Shown: one piece after another, positions 4,475 through 23,302 of the stretch | Numbering within the stretch: the first letter of the stretch is position 1 | Layout of the letters: every line of letters starts with the position of its first letter | Source: Marinomonas spartinae | Lineage (GTDB): Bacteria; Pseudomonadota; Gammaproteobacteria; Pseudomonadales; Marinomonadaceae | NCBI RefSeq assembly: GCF_900089775.1 | Contig: NZ_FLOB01000008.1 | Location: 158,500 to 182,499, forward strand | DNA: 24,000 nt | Reading direction: 5' to 3' | Program-made: the position numbers and the translations under genes | Notes under the pieces: generated by a model | What the model saw: only the letters and a program-made list of their open reading frames with translations | What the model was told of the DNA's origin: nothing | Database searches by the model: none

Positions 4475-5195
4475 GAGATTTAATCACCAACCCCCGACTC
4501 AGCGTTTTAAACGTTTTTGAACGAAATTCACGACGATACAATACCCCCACCACCAACAGACTGGCAACCATGCAAAAATACGGGCCAATAAACCACGCAC
4601 TAAAGGCCATCGCAAAATAATAAGCTCGCAAACCATAATTAAACTGATTGGCTGCCAGACTACAGACTTTTGCCATGTGCATCGCATACAACTCACGCTC
4701 GCTTTCCTCTATCCCTCGCTCTGTGGCCAGAGGCGCGCTCCCCACCAGCACAGAGCAAAAATTATACTGACGAACCGACCAAGTGAAGGTAAAAAAGGCG
4801 TAGGCAAAAATCAGCACGAGAATAATGATTTTGATCTCCCATTCCTGCCGACTACTGGGTGCCATTAAGTAAATGTCAGACAGCACCTCTAAGGCTTCTT
4901 TAGAATACTTAAAACCAGCAAAGAGCCCCGCAATAATAATCAGAGAACTTGAGGCAAAAAACAAACTACTGCGTTCAAGATTCGCAATCACAGAAGAATC
5001 CGCGATACGATTATCCCGCCGTAACAAACGTGACATCCATGCCAAACGAAATTGGTGTAACACACTCACTAAGCAGGACTTACGCTTCGAATTATACAAG
5101 GCATAAAAGGCATAGCCCCACCAACAGGAGATAAACACAAAAAACGTTGTTAAATCTAGCGGATCCATCAGGGTAGAAACCGAACTGCTTTCCAT
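4464..5195 (-). CDS. Integral membrane protein, DUF599-like
   Basis: Multi-TM ORF, for example FFVFISCWWGYAFYALY, LFFASSSLIIIAGLFAGF and IIILVLIFAYAFFTF. The segment HQFRLAWMSRLLRRDNRIAD matches what I remember of DUF599 proteins; that assignment is from memory only. The track start at 5207 is TTG, so I used the ATG at 5193-5195 (MESSS...). Confidence 0.55.
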   Translation of the reverse strand: MESSSVSTLMDPLDLTTFFVFISCWWGYAFYALYNSKRKSCLVSVLHQFRLAWMSRLLRRDNRIADSSVIANLERSSLFFASSSLIIIAGLFAGFKYSKEALEVLSDIYLMAPSSRQEWEIKIIILVLIFAYAFFTFTWSVRQYNFCSVLVGSAPLATERGIEESERELYAMHMAKVCSLAANQFNYGLRAYYFAMAFSAWFIGPYFCMVASLLVVGVLYRREFRSKTFKTLSRGLVIKSHAS

Positions 5196-5329
5196 CGTGT
5201 CACTCAACTAAAACAAACAGATTTAAAGAGGCGGTATTAAAGCATTTTTCCCTGCTCATGTCCCCGTTAGAGACTAGGAAAAAACCTTTCATCGCCGCTG
5301 AAACAGCCCCCAAAAGCCAATAAAAAAGC

Positions 5330-5357
5330 TTGCATCATAAACAAATATCGGTATGAT
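5330..5357 (+). promoter_or_regulatory. Candidate sigma70 promoter of the tandem tRNA-Leu operon
   Basis: TTGCAT (5330-5335), a 16-nt spacer, then TATGAT (5352-5357). A GC-rich discriminator TCTCGCC follows and an A-rich UP-like tract (aataaaaaag) precedes. The tRNA starts 21 nt after the -10. Confidence 0.45.
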
Positions 5358-5377
5358 TCTCGCCGTTATCACGACAT

Positions 5378-5462
5378 GCGGATGTGGTGGAATTGGTAGA
5401 CACGCTGGATTTAGGTTCCAGTGCTTCACGGCGTGAGAGTTCGAGTCTCTCCATCCGCACCA
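5378..5462 (+). tRNA. tRNA-Leu (anticodon TAG), class II with long variable arm, encoded CCA
   Basis: Acceptor GCGGATG / CATCCGC. Anticodon stem CTGGA / TCCAG with loop TTTAGGT (U33-TAG-G37). T-arm GAGTTCGAGTCTC. Ends ACCA. Confidence 0.93.
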
Positions 5463-5500
5463 TTTTTATACAACATGTGATAAATCAAATTCTCAATCCT

Positions 5501-5587
5501 GCGGATGTGGTGGAATTGGTAGACACGCTAGCTTCAGGTGCTAGTGGCCTTACGGTCGTGGGGGTTCAAGTCCCCCCATCCGCACCA
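5501..5587 (+). tRNA. tRNA-Leu (anticodon CAG), class II, encoded CCA
   Basis: Nearly identical to the E. coli tRNA-Leu(CAG) architecture. Anticodon stem CTAGC / GCTAG with loop TTCAGGT. T-arm GGGGGTTCAAGTCCCCC. The first 28 nt are identical to the upstream tRNA. Confidence 0.95.
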
Positions 5588-5606
5588 AAAGGTAAGTGCC
5601 ATATTC

Positions 5607-6887
5607 CTACCAAACTTTTGGTAATTCTTCCCATTTGGTTGTATAAGCAGGCGATAGATGATTGCGCTTCATGGCCCATTGTGGTGATACACCTTGTGAT
5701 GCAAAGAAGACGCTACCATGACCACTGTGGTTGATGCGGTCCACCACCTTCATCAACGCCTGTGAATTGGTTTTCATACTGTTCGTTCGAAACAAATCTT
5801 GTTGATAAACTCCATACTCATAGAAATCCGCCAGCATCACGCCGCCTTTCATATAACGAAATCCGTCACGCCATAGGCGACAAAACAACACCTCGGTGAC
5901 ATCCAGTAAGTCCCGCGTATCGTCTGTGGGGTTGGGGAGCTCAACAGACAAAGCATTCCCATAGCGTCCACCTTGAGCATGCGGACTGGTGCGGATGAAC
6001 ACATTCACGACTCGACAAAGACGCTTTTCTCTGCGCAGTTTCTCCGCAGCACGAGTCGTATATTTAGCGATGGCCTCCCGTAATTCCTGTTTTTCCGTAA
6101 TACGATGACCAAATGATCGACTACAAATAATCTGCTGCTTTGTTGGTCGCACCAACTCAAGATCAAGACAAGACACTCCGTTCAACTCTTGCACCGTCCT
6201 CTCCAACACCACGGAAAACTCGCTTCGAATGACCCTAGGGTTAGCATTCGCCAAATCCAATGCCGTGCGAATTCCCCTAGCACGCAACCGCTCGGTGATT
6301 CGACGACCTACGCCCCACACATCACTCACATCAACCAACGACAATAGACGCTTTTGACGCTCAGGATTCATCAAATCCACCACGGCCCCTGTTGCTGGGT
6401 AGCGCTTCGCTGCCTCATTCGCCAGCTTGGCCAGCGTCTTGGTTGGCGCAATCCCCACTCCTACCGTAATCCCCGTCCACTTATCTACTTTTGCTTTTAA
6501 CTGCTTACCAAACGTCAGTAAATCCATGACATATTCGATACCCGTTAGATCTAAGAACGCCTCATCGATGGAGTACACCTCAAGCCGTGGAGCCTCTTCC
6601 TCTAAGATTGTCATCACTCTATTCGACAAATCTGCGTATAGGGCATAATTCGACGAAAAACACACAATGCCGTACTGCCTTATCATCGCCTGAGCCTGAA
6701 ACAGCGGCATTCCCATTTTCACCCCCAAAGCCTTAGCTTCTTTGGAACGCGCCACAATGCAGCCATCGTTATTCGACAGCACAACAACAGGTGTGTATTT
6801 TAAATCTGGACGGAACAATTTCTCACAACTGGCGTAGAAGTTATTGCAATCAACCAGTGCAAAGGCTGCCTTATTAGCCCCGTGCAT
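5607..6887 (-). CDS. umuC: DNA polymerase V catalytic subunit UmuC (Y-family)
   Basis: FALVDCNNFYASCEKLFRPDL, VVVLSNNDGC and YSIDEAFLD are classic UmuC/Y-family motifs. The protein is 426 aa, and its ATG overlaps the umuD stop by 14 nt. Confidence 0.9.
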   Translation of the reverse strand: MHGANKAAFALVDCNNFYASCEKLFRPDLKYTPVVVLSNNDGCIVARSKEAKALGVKMGMPLFQAQAMIRQYGIVCFSSNYALYADLSNRVMTILEEEAPRLEVYSIDEAFLDLTGIEYVMDLLTFGKQLKAKVDKWTGITVGVGIAPTKTLAKLANEAAKRYPATGAVVDLMNPERQKRLLSLVDVSDVWGVGRRITERLRARGIRTALDLANANPRVIRSEFSVVLERTVQELNGVSCLDLELVRPTKQQIICSRSFGHRITEKQELREAIAKYTTRAAEKLRREKRLCRVVNVFIRTSPHAQGGRYGNALSVELPNPTDDTRDLLDVTEVLFCRLWRDGFRYMKGGVMLADFYEYGVYQQDLFRTNSMKTNSQALMKVVDRINHSGHGSVFFASQGVSPQWAMKRNHLSPAYTTKWEELPKVW

Positions 6888-7320
6888 ACTTACGCACCAC
6901 CCCAGTTACCACGCCGAATATTTCCAGTTCCGATTCTTCGGTAATATGAATAGCTTTATAAGCCTTGTTTTTCGGACGCAACAGCACATTGGGGTTTAAC
7001 TCCAACGTTTTCACTGTCATCTCTCCATGAAGGCAAGCAATCACAATATCCCCGTGACGCGCCGTTAGCGAACGGTCGACCACCAACACGTCCCCCGAGT
7101 GAATACCTGCCTCAATCATCGAGTCTCCCTGAACACGCACAAAAAACGTCGCCATCGGGCGGGGGATGCATAATTCATTAAGATCAAGCGTCTTCTCAAT
7201 AAAGTCCTGAGCGGGCGACGGAAAACCTGCCGATACAGACTCAACATAAAGAGGGATCTGGATACGATGATCAGCAATAAAGGAAGCAGAGCTTGAAGAT
7301 CCAAGATAAGTCACGCGCAT
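6874..7320 (-). CDS. umuD: UmuD, LexA-like self-cleaving accessory subunit of Pol V
   Basis: I trimmed the start to the ATG at 7318-7320 (MRVTYLG...), because the longer track ORF would read through its own LexA box. The Ala-Gly cleavage site is in VSAGFPSPA, the Ser nucleophile in GDSM, and the Lys in MTVKTL. Confidence 0.9.
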   Translation of the reverse strand: MRVTYLGSSSSASFIADHRIQIPLYVESVSAGFPSPAQDFIEKTLDLNELCIPRPMATFFVRVQGDSMIEAGIHSGDVLVVDRSLTARHGDIVIACLHGEMTVKTLELNPNVLLRPKNKAYKAIHITEESELEIFGVVTGVVRKYARG

Positions 7321-7333
7321 AGTTAACACCAAA

Positions 7334-7353
7334 TACTGTATATATATACAGTA
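7334..7353. promoter_or_regulatory. LexA SOS box, a perfect 20-bp palindrome
   Basis: TACTGTATATATATACAGTA lies 14 nt upstream of the umuD ATG. It equals the gammaproteobacterial consensus TACTGT-(AT)4-ACAGTA. Confidence 0.9.
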
Positions 7354-7379
7354 TAGTTTCAAACAATACCCATGACCAA
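7350..7379 (-). promoter_or_regulatory. Candidate umuDC sigma70 promoter overlapping the LexA box
   Basis: On the minus strand: TTGGTC (7374-7379), an 18-nt spacer, then TATACT (7350-7355). The -10 overlaps the left arm of the SOS box. Confidence 0.4.
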
Positions 7380-7434
7380 GTGATTTTTTGTAATAAATGG
7401 AATTTAGAGATAGCCAATCCCCCTTACCGCGCCA

Positions 7435-8307
7435 CTAATTAAAGTCCATCTCTGCTGCTGTTGGGTTAAAAATAGCGTTCTCTACAATGATTTGTTCCAA
7501 ACGGCGAGTGGCTTCGTTCGCTTTTGGTGACACAAACAACGACACTTCCATATCTGGCAAAGCGGGCAAGTCACGATAAATCACTAAGTCATCATCTAAC
7601 GTTTGATAAGGTACAATGGCAACCCCCACTCCTGCTCGAACGGCTGCCAACACACCCGATCGACTTTGACTGGTAAAAGCAATGCGATAGGGAATGCCGG
7701 CAGCATCTAATGATTGGCATGCATACTGGCGATGTTGGCACCCCTCTGAAAACACCACCAAAGGTAAAACAGCTTGCATGTGGACAAAATGCCCTTTAGC
7801 ACCGACCCACACCAATTCATCGCGGCGCAAACGAACCCCACCTTTCGTATCCGCTAACATTTCCACCAAAGCAATATCCAACTTGCCTTTATTAAGCAGT
7901 TCCACCAAATAATCGGGGCGATAATCGCAGAACGCCTCTAGTTGAGCTTCCGGATAGCTCAATATGAAGTCTTGCAAAATCGGCGCAAGCGTTCGACTGG
8001 TGTATTGGTCATGAGTACCAAGACGCACTACCCCATCAATGTCCATATTTTGAAAGGAGCCGACTATTTGATCATGCAGATTAAGCAGCTGCTGAGCGTG
8101 GTTTTTTAACTGAATCCCTACCGCAGTCAAACGCACGCCATGCTGTCCCCGCACCATCAACGGATTAGCAATCAAATCTTCGAGACGGTTGAGCTGCATG
8201 CTCACTGTTGAGGGCGCTTTATGCAGTTGTTTGGCGGCCTCCGTCAGGTTCAGAGTGTCCGCTACAACCATAAATGTGCGCAGTAAATTAATCGGTAAAT
8301 CACGCAT
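7435..8307 (-). CDS. LysR-family transcriptional regulator
   Basis: N-terminal wHTH LLRTFMVVADTLNLTEAAKQLHKAPSTVSMQLNRLE plus a ~200-aa substrate-binding domain. It is transcribed divergently from the MFS gene. Confidence 0.9.
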   Translation of the reverse strand: MRDLPINLLRTFMVVADTLNLTEAAKQLHKAPSTVSMQLNRLEDLIANPLMVRGQHGVRLTAVGIQLKNHAQQLLNLHDQIVGSFQNMDIDGVVRLGTHDQYTSRTLAPILQDFILSYPEAQLEAFCDYRPDYLVELLNKGKLDIALVEMLADTKGGVRLRRDELVWVGAKGHFVHMQAVLPLVVFSEGCQHRQYACQSLDAAGIPYRIAFTSQSRSGVLAAVRAGVGVAIVPYQTLDDDLVIYRDLPALPDMEVSLFVSPKANEATRRLEQIIVENAIFNPTAAEMDFN

Positions 8308-16312: not shown

Positions 16313-17446
16313 TTAAGAAGCCCAAACTTGATCAGCCACTTGGTTGAGTAGACGAATTTTATTCCATTGATCATCAATAGTTAGCTTATTACCCTCAGCG
16401 GTCGAGGCAAAACCACACTGGGGACTAATACATAAATTATCTAAAGGAACATAGTCCGATGCTTCTTTAATACGAGCTTTAATCAACTCGGAATCTTCAA
16501 GCTCAGGAAATTTAGAGGTCACTAAGCCCAGCACAATACGCGCCTCTTTTCCTTCGCAATAACGCAATGGAGCAAAGTCCCCTGCTCGGTCATTATCATA
16601 CTCAAGGAAAAAACCATCGTAGTGGGTCGCAAACAAGGCCTTAGCGACCGGCTCATAACCACCGGAGAACAACCAAGAAGACGCATGATTACCACGACAA
16701 ATATGGGTTGTGATCACCAGGTCATCCGGTTTGTCTGCTAAGGATTGATTAATAATTTGCGTACAAATATCACTGATTTTATCGGGATCAATGCCGCGTG
16801 CTACCAAGCCATCACGCTTATCTGCATCTACAAGAAACGCCCAGTTTGTATCGTCAAACTGCAAATAGCGACAGCCGTGGGCATAATAGGCCTGAATCGC
16901 ATCACGATAGGTTTGCGCTAAGTCGTGATAAAACCCATCCACATCGGCATAAATCTCATCTAAACGAGACGAACCATCATTAGCCAAGATTTCTTGACGT
17001 AAGATCATCGTGGGACTTGGAATCGTCGCCTTGGCAACACTCCCATCACCCGTTTCAGCAGCCTTTTTAAGAAAGTCAAAATGCGCTAAGAAGGGGTGGT
17101 TAGGATTAAATGAGACTTTGCCAGACACACGAATATTATAAGAAGGTGCATCTTTTCCTTTAAACTGCTGATTGTAGCCTGCCTCGGGTACATAGCCTTC
17201 CACACCATTAAGGTTTTCTAGGAAATCGATATGCCACCAACTACGACGAAATTCACCATCAGTAATCGCCTTTAACCCTGCCGCTTTTTGCTGCTCAACC
17301 AGCTCTAAAATGGCGCGATCTTCCACCGTGGTTAGTGCCATTCGATCAATAGCACCTTCTTTGAACTCAGCACGAGCTTGATGAAGATATTTAGGACGCA
17401 GATAGCTACCAACAACATCAGCGCGTAAAGGAAAACGAACATCCAT
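16313..17446 (-). CDS. Cobalamin-independent methionine synthase family protein, catalytic (C-terminal MetE) domain only (YxjG/YxjH-like core-MetE)
   Basis: ~377 aa, about half the length of MetE. Zn-ligand motifs are retained: THICRGNH (His-x-Cys), FLEYD (Glu) and SPQCGF (Cys). I trimmed the start to the ATG at 17444-17446, which has AGAGG 7 nt upstream; the track start at 17464 is TTG. Confidence 0.85.
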   Translation of the reverse strand: MDVRFPLRADVVGSYLRPKYLHQARAEFKEGAIDRMALTTVEDRAILELVEQQKAAGLKAITDGEFRRSWWHIDFLENLNGVEGYVPEAGYNQQFKGKDAPSYNIRVSGKVSFNPNHPFLAHFDFLKKAAETGDGSVAKATIPSPTMILRQEILANDGSSRLDEIYADVDGFYHDLAQTYRDAIQAYYAHGCRYLQFDDTNWAFLVDADKRDGLVARGIDPDKISDICTQIINQSLADKPDDLVITTHICRGNHASSWLFSGGYEPVAKALFATHYDGFFLEYDNDRAGDFAPLRYCEGKEARIVLGLVTSKFPELEDSELIKARIKEASDYVPLDNLCISPQCGFASTAEGNKLTIDDQWNKIRLLNQVADQVWAS

Positions 17447-17868
17447 GGAAAACACCTCTTTCAAATCATTTAAGTGACCACCATCGTAAAGACTCCACCC
17501 TCACACGTGAACCAAATTCTCTTCATAGAAAACCTGCATAAAATTCACTTTATTAGAAATGCTCGCTGTCACTCAACTGTGTCCATTAAAGACACCCTCC
17601 ATAAAACGAACAAGAGTCTAACGCCGTTGGATTATGAGAAAACGTATACTTTTTACTATGCATTTTTTGAAAATCAAAAACCTAACCAATTGAATTTAAA
17701 TAATTTTATTAAAAATTATTTTTTTGTTTTTTTATAATATTTTATTTTTCCCAAAAAAATTCATTTCAGTGTAAGAAATCCAAACCTCGTCTCGACTAAG
17801 GAATAGAACATCAATAATCACCTTCGTTTTATTAGAACAAAGAAGGTGAAAAACATTCAGAGTCCGAG

Positions 17869-18456
17869 GTGTGTTTGATAAACCATTTTTTACAAGAGAT
17901 TAGTGCTGGTCACCACGCTTACTGGTTTTTGATAGTAGGCATTATTTTGTTGTCTTACTTACTAGAAGACCTTGCCATTGTTACCGCAGCCTCTTTAGCC
18001 GCCCAAGATCAGCTGCCTATATCATTAGCCATGGTAGCAATCGCATTTGGCATTATTACCGGAGATTTTGGACTGTACTATCTAGGTCTACTCACACGAA
18101 AAGTTCGCTGGCTACGTTATAAAACGCTAACGAATAAATATTTTAAAGTAGTACAAAATAGACTGAGTACAAACGCATTTTTAAATCTCTTCATAATCCG
18201 ATTTACGCCAGGGTTACGGGCAATTGGTTTCACCTTAAGCGGTTTCTTTCTTATTCCATTGCCTATTTTTTTGAGCGCTGTGACCTTTGCTACCACACTT
18301 TGGACAGGCGTTGTATTTGGTGTTGTTTATTACTTAGGAACCCGAGCTTGGCTACAAGCAACACAATATCAATGGTTATTAATCCCCGTTGGTGTTGTGG
18401 CTTTATTAATGATTAATCGCATCATTCGTCGTTCTATTTCAAGAGAGTCATTATGA
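17869..18456 (+). CDS. DedA/VTT-domain (SNARE-associated) inner-membrane protein
   Basis: 195 aa with ~5 hydrophobic helices and the DedA-type motif RFTPGLRAIGFTLSGF. Only GTG 17869 or TTG 17875 are possible in-frame starts, because an in-frame stop lies at 17833. GAGG sits immediately upstream, so start-site choice is uncertain. Confidence 0.72.
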   Translation: MCLINHFLQEISAGHHAYWFLIVGIILLSYLLEDLAIVTAASLAAQDQLPISLAMVAIAFGIITGDFGLYYLGLLTRKVRWLRYKTLTNKYFKVVQNRLSTNAFLNLFIIRFTPGLRAIGFTLSGFFLIPLPIFLSAVTFATTLWTGVVFGVVYYLGTRAWLQATQYQWLLIPVGVVALLMINRIIRRSISRESL

Positions 18457-19586
18457 GTCCAACTATGAATGTTCAATCTATTCAAGAGAATAGAATTAAT
18501 GCAGGGATGCCAAGCCTAGAGATGGATTCTCATCGCGTGGTATCGCCTTTTGAATTCTATCCAACTTGGTTTTTTTATACGCCGGTTGTTTTGCAAAGTT
18601 TGTGGTTAGGACTGCGCTATGGAGATTTACGCTTACCCTTGATCGCTAACCCTAGCATCAAACTGAGCGGCATGGTTGGCGAATCGAAACATGATATTTT
18701 GCAATTAGCAGGACCGGTTGCCAAACAGTGGATTTCTCCCTACGTCACCATAACTAAAACAGAGGAATCGATTGATAAGCAGATGCAGCAGGCATTGCAA
18801 GTATTAAGCATGCAAAAACTGACTTTCCCCCTAGTGGCCAAACCGGATGTAGGATGTCGCGGGGTAGGAGTTAAATTAGTCAATAATAATCAGCAATTAA
18901 CAGAATACATTGAGTCTTTTCCAGACAAGGCCCGCTTTTTATTACAACAAAAAGCGCCTTACCAAGCGGAAGCCGGCGTTTTTTATGTTCGCTACCCTGG
19001 TGAAAAGACAGGAAAGATCATTTCCATGACATTGAAATACTCTCCAAGTGTTATAGGTGATGGTATTCATACGCTTAAAGAGCTCATTGAACGCTGCCCT
19101 CGTGCCGGACAATTAAGCCATCTTTATTTACCTCGCCACCAAGAAAAATTGGATTGGGTATTACCTGCCGGAGAAGAGTACCAATTGGCATTTGCTGGGA
19201 GTCATAGTCGCGGTTCCATTTTTAGAAATGGTAATCCATTTATTACCGATGCATTAAGCAAAAAGTTAGATGAGATCTTAAAAGACGTCAACGAGTATTA
19301 CTACGGACGCCTTGATATCAAATTTCAAAACATAAACCTATTTATGCAAGGTAAAAGCTTTACCATTCTCGAAATAAATGGCGCCAGCAGCGAAGCAACA
19401 CATATTTGGGATAGAACTACCAATCTAAAAGAGATCTTCTCAACACTTTTAGCTCAATATCGCATTTTATTTGAAATTGGTGCCAAGCAAAAAGCCAGAG
19501 GGTTTCGTCCTGACTCGATAATGTCGTTACTGACAGAATGGAAGAAAGAACGTGACTTAAGCAAACATTACCCTACAACAGATTAA
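18453..19586 (+). CDS. ATP-grasp carboxylate-amine ligase (D-Ala-D-Ala ligase/RimK-like fold) with an atypical hydrophobic N-terminal ~110 aa
   Basis: The ATG overlaps the DedA stop (ATGA). ATP-grasp signatures are FPLVAKPDVGCRGVGVKLV (Lys plus Gly-rich loop) and TILEINGASSEATHIWD (the E-x-N Mg ligands). The N-terminal segment SPFEFYPTWFFYTPVVLQSLWLGLRYG is unlike canonical pre-ATP-grasp domains. Confidence 0.8.
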   Translation: MSPTMNVQSIQENRINAGMPSLEMDSHRVVSPFEFYPTWFFYTPVVLQSLWLGLRYGDLRLPLIANPSIKLSGMVGESKHDILQLAGPVAKQWISPYVTITKTEESIDKQMQQALQVLSMQKLTFPLVAKPDVGCRGVGVKLVNNNQQLTEYIESFPDKARFLLQQKAPYQAEAGVFYVRYPGEKTGKIISMTLKYSPSVIGDGIHTLKELIERCPRAGQLSHLYLPRHQEKLDWVLPAGEEYQLAFAGSHSRGSIFRNGNPFITDALSKKLDEILKDVNEYYYGRLDIKFQNINLFMQGKSFTILEINGASSEATHIWDRTTNLKEIFSTLLAQYRILFEIGAKQKARGFRPDSIMSLLTEWKKERDLSKHYPTTD

Positions 19587-19608
19587 CCTTGTGCTTTGTG
19601 AGAGATTT

Positions 19609-20163
19609 ATGCAAACGAACTTAATAACTTTATCACCTGTTCAAAACAGAATGCGCACTTCTATTATTGATGGTTGTATTGAAACCTTACAACAAGGGCA
19701 ACAATTTCTATCATCGATCAGCAATAAAGAATACCAATTAGCGGCGCCGCCTTATGTAACCAGCTCGATTGGCAAACATTTTCGCCATTTATTGGATCTG
19801 TTTTATGCCATTTATAGCAAAAAAGACGTAATTGATTACAACCTACGTCGTCGTGACAGTGTGGTAGAGACATCTCGAATCGTCGCATTAGAAGAAATCG
19901 AGGCATTGATAGCATGGTTAGACAATCTAGACGAACATCAATTAGGCCGTAAAGTGTTGGTCTCCACTGAAGTCTGCTTGAACAGCACGCAAGTGTGCGT
20001 TGTGTCTTCTACCTTTGAGCGAGAACTGAGTTTTGTTGCACTGCATGCAACCCATCACTACGCGATGGCTAACGTCATTGTGCGTTCATTGAAGATCAAC
20101 ATAAGGGCGAACGACACATTTGGCTGCGCTCCAACAACCATATCCTATTTAAGAGGACAATAA
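19609..20163 (+). CDS. DinB/YfiT-like four-helix-bundle metalloprotein (putative)
   Basis: 184 aa from the ATG at 19609; the track GTG is at 19591. The His pattern GKHFRHLLD ... (about 90 aa) ... LHATHHYAM matches the DinB-superfamily H / H-x3-H metal triad spacing. The assignment rests on this motif and on size only. Confidence 0.5.
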   Translation: MQTNLITLSPVQNRMRTSIIDGCIETLQQGQQFLSSISNKEYQLAAPPYVTSSIGKHFRHLLDLFYAIYSKKDVIDYNLRRRDSVVETSRIVALEEIEALIAWLDNLDEHQLGRKVLVSTEVCLNSTQVCVVSSTFERELSFVALHATHHYAMANVIVRSLKINIRANDTFGCAPTTISYLRGQ

Positions 20164-20166
20164 ATC

Positions 20167-20910
20167 ATGTGCTCTGTGACCTGGCAATTAGAGGAAGAAG
20201 GCTACCAAGTCTTTTTTAATCGGGATGAACAAAAGCATCGGGCCTTAGGCCTACCACCTAGACAAATACGACTAGATGATGTCAGCGTGCTGATGCCCAT
20301 TGATCCCGTCGGTCAGGGTAGCTGGATAAGTGTGAATGAACTCGGCTTAACCTTATGCTTGCTCAACAACTATCAAGGGTTATGCCCCAAAGGTACGTTG
20401 ATTAGTCGCGGACAACTACTCAAGAGCCTCTCCTCGAAAACGAGCACAGTGGAAATTGAAAAGGCTTTTAACGCTATTGATCCAATGGCGTATGCCCCCT
20501 TCTTATTGGTTGCGTTTGATCCTGCCTTAACCAAACACAAAATGGACGTCATGGTGTTCGAATGGAATGGACAAGACACTGAGATCTACCCAAGGTCTGG
20601 GCCATTGTTTTCTTCCGGTGTGGATTTAGAGCGCGTGGTGGCACACCGGAAGAAAACCTATGAGGATTTTGTTGCAACGGGAAGACAGGGTTTCAGTCAA
20701 CTGCATGCCAGTCACCATGATGAGCATTTACATACGTCATTTTGTATGCACAGAAACGATGCCCACACCGTGAGTTTTACACAGGTAGTTGTGACGCCAA
20801 ATAGCCAAAAAATGAGCTATGTAGCTGGCTCGCCTTGCACACAATTAAATGAAAAAAACCTTATAAAACATAGCGTTTATTTACCATCGAAAAACGCAAT
20901 GGCGTCCTAA
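20167..20910 (+). CDS. NRDE-family protein (TANGO2/DUF833 homolog) with Cys2 N-terminus
   Basis: The protein begins MCSVTWQLEEEGYQVFFNRDEQKHR, carrying the family-defining Met-Cys start and the NRDE motif. GAGGA lies 9 nt upstream. The start is 4 nt after the previous stop. Confidence 0.8.
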   Translation: MCSVTWQLEEEGYQVFFNRDEQKHRALGLPPRQIRLDDVSVLMPIDPVGQGSWISVNELGLTLCLLNNYQGLCPKGTLISRGQLLKSLSSKTSTVEIEKAFNAIDPMAYAPFLLVAFDPALTKHKMDVMVFEWNGQDTEIYPRSGPLFSSGVDLERVVAHRKKTYEDFVATGRQGFSQLHASHHDEHLHTSFCMHRNDAHTVSFTQVVVTPNSQKMSYVAGSPCTQLNEKNLIKHSVYLPSKNAMAS

Positions 20911-20936
20911 TAATTTTATTAATAAAGGGGTTCAAT

Positions 20937-21377
20937 ATGAAAAAGTATGTATTGGTTTTAATGATGCTGCTGAGCGGCTTTGTCTACGCTAAAGACCCTA
21001 TTTATACCAGTTTCTTTAGCAACAAAGCGTTAGATGGCTACGATACCGTTGCCTATTTTACTGACCATAAAGCAGTCGAAGGCAGCAAACAATACACCAC
21101 CAAATACAAAGGTGCGGATTGGTATTTCTCATCGGCTAAGCATTTAGCGATGTTTAAGAAGACCCCTGAGAAATACGCGCCACAATATGGCGGTTATTGT
21201 GCATGGGCGATTGCCGCTAAAAATGATTTCGCCTCCGCCGACCCTCATCAATGGGCCATTGTGGATAGCAAGCTGTATTTAAATTATGACTCAGAGGTTA
21301 AGGCAAAGTGGGATAAAAACCCAAAAGGCTTTATTAAAATGGGCGACCGCAATTGGCCTAGCCTGATCAATAAATAA
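20937..21377 (+). CDS. Secreted YHS-domain protein (YHS-domain (seleno)protein family, Cys form)
   Basis: Signal peptide MKKYVLVLMMLLSGFVYA|KDP. YHS-type core GYDTVAYF...KYKGADWYFSS and the motif YAPQYGGYCAWA, with the Cys encoded by TGT. AAGGGG lies 6 nt upstream. Confidence 0.78.
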   Translation: MKKYVLVLMMLLSGFVYAKDPIYTSFFSNKALDGYDTVAYFTDHKAVEGSKQYTTKYKGADWYFSSAKHLAMFKKTPEKYAPQYGGYCAWAIAAKNDFASADPHQWAIVDSKLYLNYDSEVKAKWDKNPKGFIKMGDRNWPSLINK

Positions 21378-21388
21378 GGGGGCATAAA

Positions 21389-21850
21389 ATGAAAGCAAAA
21401 TTGGTGAAATATATCCCTACTGTGTTGATTGCATTTATCTTTGTACAATCGCTGTTTTTTAAATTTTCTGGCTCTTATGAGACCCAGTATATTTTTTCCA
21501 CCTTGGGAGCATGGTCTGGTTTCATTTGGTTTGCCCATTATGGTGCCTACCTTATAGGGACGTTTGAATTGATTGCGAGCATCCTGCTGTTTACCCGATG
21601 GCATGGCTTAGGCGCCTTGCTAAGCATGGGAATTATGACGGGGGCAATTTTCTTCCATCTGTTCACACCACTTGGAACCAAAATGCCAGAGTATGATGCC
21701 ATGGGGAACGTTGTTGGCAATGATGGTGGAGAGCTCTTTATCCTAGCGTGTCTTGTCTGGCTGTCGAGTGGTTTTTTAGCCATTCGGGACACTCTTTCAG
21801 TGGATGGAATCCTAAACAAAATGCAGCACAGAAATAAGCGTGTTTTATAA
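21389..21850 (+). CDS. DoxX-family membrane protein
   Basis: 153 aa with four hydrophobic helices and a DoxX-like pattern (LIAFIFVQSLFFKFSG, GTFELIASILLF, GIMTGAIFFHLF). AAGGGGG lies 6 nt upstream. The start is 11 nt after the YHS stop. Confidence 0.72.
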   Translation: MKAKLVKYIPTVLIAFIFVQSLFFKFSGSYETQYIFSTLGAWSGFIWFAHYGAYLIGTFELIASILLFTRWHGLGALLSMGIMTGAIFFHLFTPLGTKMPEYDAMGNVVGNDGGELFILACLVWLSSGFLAIRDTLSVDGILNKMQHRNKRVL

Positions 21851-21874
21851 CAAGAAATCTTTAGGTTGAAAGGT

Positions 21875-21900
21875 GTGTCAGCTAGATTCCTAGCTGACAC
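21875..21900. terminator. GC-rich hairpin between convergent genes (operon end / permease end)
   Basis: A perfect 11-bp stem GTGTCAGCTAG / CTAGCTGACAC with loop ATTC. There is no strong U-tract on either strand, so it could be a bidirectional or Rho-assisted terminator, or an RNA-stabilising stem. Confidence 0.5.
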
Positions 21901-21913
21901 AGACCGATAACAA

Positions 21914-23302
21914 TCAGCTCATGTCTGGCTCAAATAAACCACGTTTCATATAAAACTTGACCCAAACCGCAGCGATAAGGCTAATTACCAGCAATATCCC
22001 ACCGGTAATGCTATAAACCAGTTTCGTCATTTCTGGGGAAGGAGAATTGTTTAAAGCAATATAAACCATAGCCACAATCCCAAGAATCTGAGGAATTGGG
22101 AAAAATGGTGTTTTATAAGGACGATGTAGATCAGGAAGACGACGACGCAACACCATGACATCAATGTGCGCAACAATGTAGGCCAATAACCAGCTCGTTG
22201 TCGCAGCAATAACAAGGGTGATTAGTGAGTTAATGGAAAGAGACAAAAATGGGATCGCAATTAATACTGCCATTAGCACAATGCCTACCCATGGCGCACC
22301 AAAACGGTTAGACGCTTTCAACTGTGGGAAAGCCTGCTTTTGATGAGCCATACCATGCAACATTCTAGGAATAGAAGCCAGAACCGTGTTCATCGTACTA
22401 CAAGTAGCCGTTAGGGCCATAACAGTCGCAATGATCATTCCGCTTTTACCAAACACAGCATCCACGTAGTTCAAATATGGAATAGGCGCCGTCGTTAACG
22501 TTTCTACATTGACATACAAGCTTGCGCCATACACAAAGAGTAGAAATATAGTAAAGATGAAAAATAATGACCCATGCATTGCTCTTGGAATATTTTTGGA
22601 TGGATTCTTGACTTCATTGATCATTGGACAGATAAACTCAACCCCAACCATTAGCCACATAGCCAGTGCGACAAAACCAATAAAACTGCCGTTTAGAACC
22701 CCACCAAAACTCCAATCAACATGAGTGCCTGATAGCACCGGATGTGGCTGGCTAATACCCATCGCCGCAGATAAACCAACCGCAATCAATGCAAAAACCA
22801 AAACAAAAGCCAGTAAGTTTTGTACCTTCGCAAAGATGTCAGCACCCACTAAATTCGTCACACATAGGACCACCAAAATAATCATAGGTACGACTTTAGG
22901 CGGAAATACTCCGGGGAAGACCTGATCTAATACACCATCGACTAGAAACATTTCAACTGGAACAGCCAAAAAAGCCACAACGACGTAACCTGCAAATACA
23001 GACACAATGGCAGGGAAATGACCAATCGCCTTTTGCGTGTAAGTTGCCAATGTTCCTTCCTGTGGAAACATAAGCGACAGTTCAGAGAAACTCATGGCAT
23101 TAAACTGCGCAATAATCAATGCTGTGACCATTGCTGCAATAAATGACATTCCACCTAAACCAATCCCTTGTGTTGAAGAAATCATTGCTCCCTGAACAAT
23201 CACAAGCCCAATACAAATTGCCATCATAGTTGGCAAGTTCATCTTCTTAATGGGTTTTATGTTACTTGTTGAGTCCACTTGCGTGTGTGCTGTGTCGCTC
23301 AT
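21914..23302 (-). CDS. APC-superfamily amino acid/polyamine permease
   Basis: 462 aa with ~12 TM helices. The N-terminal pattern MAICIGLVIVQGAMISS...FNAMSFSELSLMFPQEG is typical of APC permeases. AGGAA lies 8 nt upstream of the ATG. Confidence 0.85.
   Translation of the reverse strand: MSDTAHTQVDSTSNIKPIKKMNLPTMMAICIGLVIVQGAMISSTQGIGLGGMSFIAAMVTALIIAQFNAMSFSELSLMFPQEGTLATYTQKAIGHFPAIVSVFAGYVVVAFLAVPVEMFLVDGVLDQVFPGVFPPKVVPMIILVVLCVTNLVGADIFAKVQNLLAFVLVFALIAVGLSAAMGISQPHPVLSGTHVDWSFGGVLNGSFIGFVALAMWLMVGVEFICPMINEVKNPSKNIPRAMHGSLFFIFTIFLLFVYGASLYVNVETLTTAPIPYLNYVDAVFGKSGMIIATVMALTATCSTMNTVLASIPRMLHGMAHQKQAFPQLKASNRFGAPWVGIVLMAVLIAIPFLSLSINSLITLVIAATTSWLLAYIVAHIDVMVLRRRLPDLHRPYKTPFFPIPQILGIVAMVYIALNNSPSPEMTKLVYSITGGILLVISLIAAVWVKFYMKRGLFEPDMS

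Follow-up and report, generated by a model that had tools for sequence, protein, structure and literature searches.

In MprF-type systems, a cytoplasmic enzyme that modifies a lipid headgroup is joined to a lipid transporter, by coupling or by fusion, and the gene next door often encodes a hydrolase, such as PA0919 or AhyD, that removes the modification. DedA proteins transport lipids, are in places fused to lipid-headgroup synthases, and in one case replace the flippase domain of MprF (PMC10193950). A further headgroup modification, the ATP-dependent transfer of taurine to the carboxylate of ornithine lipid, has been known biochemically since the 1970s with its gene unassigned (PMC12971839), and the acyltransferase VCA0646 of Vibrio cholerae makes ornithine lipid when expressed in Escherichia coli (PMC12186959). 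Here we analyzed a six-gene, plus-strand operon of Marinomonas spartinae that lies within positions 17869 to 21850 of a 24-kb stretch of DNA (the window). Its open reading frames (ORFs) encode, in order, a DedA membrane protein (ORF1), an ATP-grasp ligase (ORF2), a DinB-like protein (ORF3), an NRDE/TANGO2-family protein (ORF4), a secreted YHS protein (ORF5), and a DoxX-like membrane protein (ORF6). Our results demonstrate that DedA and the ATP-grasp ligase are the core of a conserved functional unit, and that this unit is linked to the genes of aminolipid acyltransferases.

The gene neighborhoods that support this were assembled from looked-up contigs and from a metagenome scan with a 16-sequence alignment, which gave 499 confirmed relatives of which the best 80 loci were kept; a scan of genome contigs with a single protein had yielded only 3 loci. 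All ORFs of these loci were searched with profiles of the six window proteins and of OlsF, OlsB-like, and hydrolase seeds. Counts refer to the 44 nonredundant loci in which both flanks extend for at least 4 kb, and a partner was scored when it lay within 5 kb of the ATP-grasp gene. DedA was present in 42 of the 44 loci, YHS and an OlsF/OlsB-family acyltransferase domain in 29 each, DinB-like in 24, DoxX-like in 23, an alpha/beta-hydrolase in 21, and NRDE in 20. NRDE and DinB-like genes occurred together in 20 loci, NRDE without DinB in none, and YHS adjoined DoxX in 21. Patatin-like lipases and AhpC/TSA proteins were further recurrent neighbors, and a TMEM164-family protein was encoded in one locus. 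The unit recurs across Gamma-, Alpha-, and Betaproteobacteria and Bacteroidota; in Flavobacterium, the gene order is YHS-DoxX-DinB-NRDE-ATPgrasp.

The DedA and ATP-grasp genes often overlap by 4 nucleotides (nt) in related loci, and in 83 of the best 150 representatives (clusters at 50% identity) the two are fused in a single protein, whose N-terminal domain in each case matches ORF1 of the window. Other fusions join an alpha/beta-hydrolase, DedA, and ATP-grasp (P0213, P0242, P0251, and P0262), DinB and ATP-grasp (one representative, P0210), or TANGO2, an alpha/beta-hydrolase, DedA, and ATP-grasp in one protein of 1121 amino acids (aa) (P0239). The cluster members of the fusion proteins are all metagenomic. 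Such DedA-ATP-grasp fusions are absent from domain-architecture surveys because the ligase has no Pfam model.

A reading of the M. spartinae DNA from its letters alone (the sequence-only reading) had proposed one functional unit built on a four-gene core of DedA, ATP-grasp, DinB-like, and NRDE. The recurrence of the neighborhood and the domain fusions bear out the unit but not the size of its core. Since DedA accompanies the ligase almost everywhere and is fused to it in more than half of the representatives, the invariant core consists of DedA and ATP-grasp only. These two proteins are physically and genetically coupled, and the other four window genes, DinB-like and NRDE among them, are frequent accessory modules. 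A chance neighborhood of unrelated genes, for which nothing speaks beyond the absence of a known pathway, has practically no probability left: the unit recurs across phyla with its order reshuffled, Rosetta-stone fusions link four of the six families, and the flanks are not conserved.

The ATP-grasp protein is 100% identical to MSP8887_02134 and has a 97% match in a second M. spartinae strain. Its AlphaFold2 model, built with 49 homologs, has a predicted local distance difference test (pLDDT) score of 95.6. A Foldseek search of the PDB with this model gave 412 matches at E values of ≤1e-3, and the 50 listed are all ATP-grasp ligases. Among the matches listed, the best folds belong to the G-domain of cyanophycin synthetase (1.7e-11), to GshF, and to Ddl, at 11 to 19% identity, template modeling (TM) scores of 0.35 to 0.5, and a probability of 1.0; identity to the Ddl structures is 11 to 15%. 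K130, D288, and E307 are invariant among 49 sequences, and N309 is nearly so. The alignment and the model predict an intact ATP-grasp active site, and the nearest folds suggest a chemistry in which an amino-acid or peptide carboxylate is activated and an amine is then added. The N-terminal helix (approximately residues 38 to 56) has conserved aromatic and hydrophobic residues of membrane type.

In Pfam and NCBIfam searches with the ATP-grasp protein, no model passed its cutoff. NCBIfam scores were 15.3 for TIGR01205 (Ddl) against a cutoff of 245.65, 24 for cya_phycin_syn against 850, and 23.2 for rimK_fam against 143.4, the latter two matches being local only (residues 110 to 215); Pfam Dala_Dala_lig_C scored 20.8 against 24. 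The Ddl score far below its cutoff, the fold match, and the gene context rule out a D-alanine-D-alanine ligase, and the subcutoff scores together with the low identity of the structural matches rule out CphA or RimK orthology. The proposal that the protein is not a close ortholog of Ddl, GshB, RimK, or CphA is thereby upheld. NCBI and UniRef give most of its orthologs (P0002 to P0120) the name "D-alanine--D-alanine ligase," which looks like a propagated misannotation. The family is large: a profile scan that covered 1.84 billion cluster representatives found 2648 representatives (50% identity) at E values of ≤1e-3 and 956 at ≤1e-30, with named matches from at least three proteobacterial classes and Bacteroidota.

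The partner of the ligase, ORF1, had no match to PF09335 (VTT_dom) in a Pfam search with the window protein alone. The domain was matched by 25 of 27 ORF1 orthologs (25 to 78% identical; best E value, 9.7e-15), and the V. cholerae ortholog has a precomputed PF09335 match. E33, D34, G65, D66, R111, P114, G115, and R117 are invariant among the 27 sequences; these include an acidic pair and an R-x-x-P-G-x-R motif, which we take to be DedA signatures. Kyte-Doolittle hydropathy indicates four to five hydrophobic segments. On these alignments, ORF1 is assigned to the DedA/VTT family, as a putative transporter that would move lipids in partnership with the ligase.

The sequence-only reading had described a set of six genes with no characterized pathway. 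It missed the link to aminolipid acyltransferases, seen in 29 of the 44 loci, and it also missed a homologous V. cholerae cluster, VCA0651 to VCA0646, for which some experimental data exist. In the nearest relatives (M. piezotolerans, L002 and L012 to L022), the order is DedA-ATPgrasp-DinB-NRDE-YHS-DoxX-OlsF on one strand, so that OlsF is the seventh gene. The operon-linked OlsF is of the bifunctional acyltransferase type and scores 423 to 440 bits on the NCBIfam OlsF model, with VCA0646 at 440. More distant loci carry a divergent OlsB-like N-acyltransferase together with an alpha/beta-hydrolase, or an O-acyltransferase-only domain that directly follows the ligase. No reasonable background rate would account for so close a link between the unit and aminolipid acyltransferases.

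In V. cholerae, the cluster encodes DedA, ATP-grasp (64% identical to that of M. spartinae), a 180-aa DinB-like protein, TANGO2, and YHS, in the same order as in M. spartinae, followed by a 581-aa OlsF-type acyltransferase. The numbers VCA0650 and VCA0651 were assigned from consecutive numbering and from the annotation "D-alanine-D-alanine ligase, hypothetical." The V. cholerae cluster differs in that OlsF is its last gene and a DoxX-like gene is missing, whereas M. spartinae has DoxX and carries OlsF elsewhere. Published work on V. cholerae treats the operon as four genes only, three of them without an assigned function: vca0646-0649 are activated by HapR and were described as "four genes of unknown function" (10.1101/2024.09.23.614608). 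Low salinity induces VCA0646, the second OlsF of V. cholerae, which also has a part in resistance to cationic peptides (PMC12186959, PMC12971839). Our literature search on ATP-grasp, DedA, OlsF, YHS, TANGO2, DinB, DoxX, and aminolipids found no paper linking them except these V. cholerae papers. Just downstream of the V. cholerae cluster, a glyoxalase-family gene is followed by a sulfur/redox neighborhood (L004, 11302 to 13137) that encodes a rhodanese-domain protein resembling coenzyme A-disulfide reductase and a membrane protein of YgaP type.

We propose that the operon is an envelope-lipid modification module built around the ligase/transporter pair and acting on an ornithine-type aminolipid; taken as a whole, the model seems to us evenly balanced between right and wrong. 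The ATP-grasp protein would be retained on the cytoplasmic side of the inner membrane by DedA and by its own hydrophobic N-terminal helix, and there it would use ATP to form an amide bond in the headgroup of a membrane lipid that bears a carboxylate and an amine. The most likely substrate is ornithine lipid or a related lipid of the N-acyl-amino-acid type that OlsF makes. Ligation could run in either direction, with an amine or amino acid joined to the free alpha-carboxylate or an amino acid joined to the free delta-amine. Chemically, the alpha-carboxylate of N-acylated ornithine is akin to the C-terminal carboxylates on which cyanophycin synthetase and glutathione synthetase act, and the delta-amine of the same molecule is akin to the lysine side chain to which the enterococcal D-Asp ligase turns. 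DedA would then move the modified lipid across the membrane, following the synthase-plus-flippase logic of MprF. In this model, the identity of the lipid, which way the ligation runs, and the part played by each enzyme are what we infer.

The likeness to MprF lies in function and architecture only. The sequences are unrelated, and Pfam and NCBIfam searches of the six proteins found no aminoacyl-transfer RNA (tRNA)-dependent LPG-synthase domain. With aminoacyl-tRNA as its donor, MprF forms an ester on phosphatidylglycerol (PG), whereas the ATP-grasp protein would make an amide, and the partner lipid genes are aminolipid genes here, not PG genes. With the cyanophycin synthetase G-domain, GshF, and Ddl, the ligase shares the ATP-grasp fold, the conserved ATP/Mg residues, and an expected course through an acyl phosphate followed by amine attack; it differs from them in the membrane-type N-terminal helix of its family and in its coupling to DedA. 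A comparable reaction is known from Gluconobacter cerinus, in which cerilipin synthesis involves an amide ligation that requires ATP and takes place on the carboxylate of ornithine lipid (PMC12971839); an OlsF-linked ATP-grasp could perform a reaction of just this kind. By this analogy, the family is a candidate for an ATP-dependent ornithine-lipid transferase of the taurine type, a resemblance that is a lead only, as no evidence ties the family to the G. cerinus or the taurine reaction.

The sequence-only reading had offered three hypotheses, and among these the ATP-dependent aminoacylation of an envelope or lipid-linked substrate handled by DedA is favored by the data. A thiol pathway found no specific support, and a copper, selenium, or oxidant-stress module fits only the V. 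cholerae expression pattern and the YHS/DoxX arm. A broader possibility is that a widespread class of membrane-lipid amide ligases, consisting of ATP-grasp and a DedA flippase, extends ornithine-type aminolipids by an amino acid or amine, with TANGO2/NRDE as the cognate lipid amidase or transacylase of the cysteine N-terminal nucleophile (Cys-Ntn) type; the class could include the ATP-dependent ornithine-lipid headgroup transferase. We regard this generalization as tentative and rather doubtful.

Several observations weigh against an aminolipid-modifying module. The M. spartinae operon is itself without OlsF, since a hairpin and a convergent permease gene follow DoxX, and no other locus in the set has all five partners yet lacks an acyltransferase. 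An acyltransferase is missing from the neighborhood in approximately one-third of the 44 loci. In V. cholerae, a reporter fused to the sequence upstream of VCA0649 gave a weak signal and VCA0646 is served by a salt-responsive promoter of its own (PMC12186959), so that transcriptional coupling to OlsF is not strict. VCA0646 alone in E. coli yields unmodified ornithine lipid (PMC12186959), and in the literature we found no modified ornithine lipid reported for V. cholerae. In Flavobacterium sp. H122, a LysE-type translocator gene (L003, 7030 to 7671) follows ATP-grasp at the place of DedA, and an amino-acid exporter in this position would suit a soluble product. One homolog (P0146) carries a PG_binding_1 peptidoglycan-binding domain. 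In one locus (L095), an Asp/Glu racemase gene (5085 to 5897) lies directly upstream of a DedA-ATP-grasp fusion (6001 to 7698), which is followed by YHS; this hints that a D-amino acid could be the substrate of the ligase in that organism. The 80 metagenome loci were those that best matched the query and are thus biased toward Proteobacteria. Finally, the roles that we suggest below for the DinB-like, NRDE, YHS, and DoxX proteins would follow from family membership only.

The OlsF of M. spartinae lies on another contig and is 79% identical to the operon-linked OlsF of M. piezotolerans. Its gene (L092, 6001 to 7749) has the gene of a pyridine-nucleotide disulfide oxidoreductase on one side and that of an M20 peptidase on the other, and type VI secretion genes follow a few kilobases downstream.

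Some of the observations above raise the possibility of a different envelope substrate. The ligase could act on a glycerophospholipid headgroup (phosphatidylserine, phosphatidylethanolamine, or PG) or on an undecaprenyl-linked cell-wall precursor, and the OlsF link would then reflect only a shared envelope-stress regulon. The racemase followed by a ligase fusion in L095 recalls the enterococcal racemase/D-Asp ligase pair for peptidoglycan, and the peptidoglycan-binding homolog and the loci without aminolipid genes point the same way, as does a phosphatidylserine-decarboxylase-like gene near the Flavobacterium cluster. Characterized DedA members move undecaprenyl phosphate and phosphatidylethanolamine (PMC10193950). 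Against this, none of the Mur, Fem, Pss, and Pgs genes is a recurrent neighbor, and OlsF/OlsB domains occur in 66% of the loci, whereas by our own estimate the background of OlsF/OlsB-type genes per 10-kb stretch should be well under 1%. We therefore consider a different envelope substrate unlikely. The phosphatidylserine-decarboxylase-like gene of Flavobacterium sp. H122 (L003, 1600 to 2985) lies just upstream of the cluster, together with a Crp-family regulator.

The arrangement of acyltransferase genes in the distant loci also bears on the reaction of the ligase. Four loci contain only hydrolase-DedA-ATPgrasp (L009, L037, L044, and L052), and in five others an O-acyltransferase-only domain follows ATPgrasp (L036, L039, L042, L046, and L060), with no N-acyltransferase in view in either group. 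This could mean that the ATP-grasp protein is itself an aminolipid synthase, in which a fatty acid or 3-hydroxy fatty acid, activated as an acyl phosphate, N-acylates an amino acid and a hydrolase or OlsA-like domain adds the second chain, giving a fourth route to acyloxyacyl aminolipids beside OlsH and OlsI. There are precedents for parts of such a route, in that OlsH forms lyso-ornithine lipid directly with ATP and OlsI is an alpha/beta-hydrolase O-acyltransferase (PMC12971839). However, two-thirds of the loci already have an OlsB/OlsF N-acyltransferase, which would make a synthesizing ligase redundant, and the nearest folds use amino-acid or peptide carboxylates, not fatty acids. We know of no ATP-grasp enzyme that acts on a fatty acid, and a synthase role appears quite unlikely to us.

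ORF3 and ORF4 would provide further enzymes for the aminolipid module. The window ORF3 scored 22.2 bits for DinB in Pfam, against a cutoff of 23, and among 29 orthologs 12 matched DinB_2 and 10 matched DinB at E values of <0.01 (best, 1.9e-8). H63, R65, H66, Y83, R86, R88, R144, E145, H152, H155, and H156 are invariant. A single-sequence AlphaFold2 model of the protein reached a pLDDT of only 40, and a PDB profile search with the family gave no match. The profiles place ORF3 in the DinB superfamily as a putative member. ORF4 scored 28.8 bits for TANGO2, above the Pfam cutoff of 22.6, and its family profile matches the human TANGO2 structures 8sv7 and 9bwa at 9.8e-24. M1, C2, N18, R19, D20, and E21, that is, the Met-Cys start and the NRDE motif, are invariant among 24 sequences. 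The crystal structure of human TANGO2 led to the proposal of a Cys-Ntn hydrolase acting on fatty-acyl amides (PMC13044924). The invariant residues, the structure match, and this proposal agree with the idea, put forward from the DNA letters, that the Met-Cys start provides a putative Ntn-type Cys nucleophile.

Assignment of a heme-trafficking role to the TANGO2 family is disputed (PMC12782551, PMC13044924). The bacterial member HtpA (SO0126) shares with ORF4 the family, Cys2, and the NRDE motif. HtpA adjoins a metal transporter and is assigned to heme trafficking, whereas ORF4 and its relatives are embedded in, or fused to, lipid-enzyme genes. HtpA-type heme trafficking for ORF4 was judged unsupported, since the genomic context of HtpA is different. 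In one locus (L094, 1172 to 8209), a DinB_2 gene, the 1121-aa TANGO2-hydrolase-DedA-ATPgrasp fusion, a divergent OlsF-like gene, and the TMEM164-family gene are found together, so that two genes and the adjoining lipid enzymes make up nearly the whole system.

Ergothioneine biosynthesis combines DinB folds with Cys-Ntn amidases, and GshF is among the best structural matches of the ligase. The product could accordingly be a soluble low-molecular-weight thiol or gamma-glutamyl-type peptide, made by the ATP-grasp ligase, a DinB thiol transferase, and an Ntn amidase and exported by DedA or LysE. The LysE exporter in the place of DedA in Flavobacterium would agree with this, as would the Sulf_transp and TauE genes located nearby in L008, L041, and L010. 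However, no cysteine-, pyridoxal phosphate-, or methyltransferase-type partner recurs in the neighborhoods, the ligase has a conserved membrane-type N-terminal helix, and the DedA fusions, lipid acyltransferases, lipid-type hydrolases, and patatin and TMEM164 neighbors point to lipids. A soluble thiol or peptide is thus highly improbable. In the aminolipid model, the putative NRDE/TANGO2 Cys-Ntn enzyme and a putative DinB-fold metalloenzyme would act on the same lipid as the ligase, where they would most likely cleave or transfer an amide-linked group in editing, turnover, or maturation.

The last two proteins would act on the periplasmic side. ORF5 scored 157.8 bits on NCBIfam NF041384 (YHS_seleno_dom), against a cutoff of 70, and matched Pfam YHS at 1.6e-10; Cys88, in the motif GGYCAW, is invariant, and a signal-peptide-like N terminus is found in all 28 aligned members. 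ORF6 scored 20.5 bits for MauE against a cutoff of 27. Among its 29 orthologs, 11 match DoxX, 7 match MauE, and 7 match DoxX_2, all weakly (best, 4.7e-5). The protein has at least three hydrophobic segments by hydropathy, and K25, E60, and H90 are invariant. At the family level, these profile matches give weak but consistent support for the DoxX/MauE clan. The six family assignments of the sequence-only reading hold at this level; several window proteins score just under Pfam cutoffs and are secured by their orthologs.

In the aminolipid module, the secreted YHS Cys protein and its DoxX-type membrane partner would work from the periplasm, where they may form a redox pair of the thiol/quinone type. 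In V. cholerae, co-overexpression of vca0646 (OlsF) and vca0647 (YHS) leads to cell death, and overexpression of neither alone does so (10.1101/2024.09.23.614608), a lethal interaction that fits YHS acting on or with the lipid product.

The same two proteins could instead be the functional core of a copper, selenium, or oxidant-stress module to which the other genes are auxiliary. As the name of NF041384 indicates, the YHS family includes selenoprotein members, and its Cys is invariant here. In RNA sequencing data from a delta-VCA0231 strain, VCA0650-1, VCA0648-9, and VCA0646-7 fall 4- to 8-fold together with cpxP, copA, copG, msrAB, trx2, and grx (PMC7600106). This joint fall in one data set indicates that the six V. 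cholerae genes behave as one regulatory unit tied to envelope and redox stress, a coregulation that counts for the aminolipid module as well, and AhpC/TSA genes and extracytoplasmic function (ECF) sigma factors recur near related clusters. However, coexpression tells when genes are used and not what they do, and YHS and DoxX are found far less regularly than the nearly universal DedA and ATP-grasp. This makes a stress module very unlikely as the function of the unit. The ECF sigma factor genes lie beside the cluster in six loci (L008, L027, L031, L041, L066, and L085), with a zf-HC2 anti-sigma gene adjoining in L008, which suggests envelope-stress control in those organisms.

The superfamily of every protein is known, as is the logic of headgroup synthase, flippase, and hydrolase from MprF-type systems. 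What is new is the ATP-grasp chemistry, the class of DedA-ATP-grasp fusions, the aminolipid linkage, and the recruitment of a TANGO2 homolog. The ligase family is large, lacks a Pfam or NCBIfam model, and is widely mislabeled as D-Ala-D-Ala ligase. Its near-obligate pairing with DedA would add an enzymatic partner to the emerging view of DedA proteins as lipid flippases, and the OlsF/OlsB linkage suggests an undescribed pathway for the modification or turnover of bacterial aminolipids. In V. cholerae, such a pathway may underlie HapR-controlled cell death and the polymyxin-related role of VCA0646. A TANGO2 homolog linked or fused to lipid enzymes provides a testable biochemical hypothesis for a family whose function is disputed among heme trafficking, acyl coenzyme A binding, and Ntn hydrolysis. 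If correct, it would give the TANGO2 family a first class of physiological substrates; the human member of the family causes a severe metabolic disease, and its function is not agreed upon.

The coordinates of the operon and its control elements are given in Table 1. All six ORFs are present in the ORF list as the sequence-only reading had placed them. The ATGA overlap between ORF1 and ORF2 (18453 to 18456) was also found, as were the subsequent gaps of 4 nt (GTG 19591) or 22 nt (ATG 19609) and of 3, 26, and 11 nt. ORF1 probably starts at TTG 17875 rather than at GTG 17869, because the former is kept in M. piezotolerans and the latter is not. For the DinB-like gene, the alignment of orthologs indicates ATG 19609 as the probable start.

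TABLE 1 Features of the M. spartinae operon, in window coordinates
Feature	Positions	Strand	Remarks
Promoter-like site (TTAAAA, 18-nt spacer, TATAAT)	17709-17738	+	AT-rich region 5' of the operon; consensus match only
ORF1, DedA/VTT membrane protein	17869-18456	+	195 aa; 193 aa if the start is TTG 17875
ORF2, ATP-grasp carboxylate-amine ligase	18453-19586	+	377 aa; family without Pfam/NCBIfam model
ORF3, DinB-superfamily protein	19591-20163	+	190 aa; 184 aa if the start is ATG 19609
ORF4, NRDE/TANGO2-family protein	20167-20910	+	247 aa; putative N-terminal-Cys (Ntn) amidase or acyltransferase
ORF5, secreted YHS-domain protein	20937-21377	+	146 aa; single invariant Cys88
ORF6, DoxX/MauE-clan small integral membrane protein	21389-21850	+	153 aa
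Perfect-stem hairpin (11 bp, 4-nt loop)	21875-21900		Between the operon and the convergent permease gene

The operon is flanked by a Meth_synt_2-like gene, an M90 peptidase gene, and an APC permease gene. These are kept only in the other M. spartinae strain, and neither in M. piezotolerans nor in any other locus. Since the flanks are not conserved and the unit is, its borders are confirmed where they had been drawn. The hairpin behind ORF6 proved as strong as had been described, with a free energy of -23.4 kcal/mol and a z score of -4.69 against shuffled sequences, none of 200 shuffles being as stable. It was missed by a terminator scan that depends on a T-run because it has no T-tract; it lies between convergent genes and probably ends transcription from both sides. 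Inside the operon, nine weak terminator-like matches with stems of 5 to 8 bp were found, against 4.6 ± 2.1 expected, and these are not convincing. The promoter-like site agrees with the consensus at 10 of 12 positions, is the only good match on the plus strand 5' of the operon, and is the best plus-strand match in 17400 to 22000, in a region where the number of such matches is no higher than in shuffles. Alignment of the upstream regions of 12 related operons and a search for CpxR-like boxes revealed no conserved operator. PADLOC gave no match for any of the six proteins, which sets aside an anti-phage defense system.

An Rfam search of the operon leader gave no match. Between the promoter-like site and ORF1, the leader contains an inverted repeat, CACCTTC (17819 to 17825) and GAAGGTG (17842 to 17848), which has no Rfam match and is partly kept in M. 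piezotolerans. The only matches above the Rfam gathering score in the window are two plus-strand tRNA genes, at 5378 to 5459 and 5501 to 5584.

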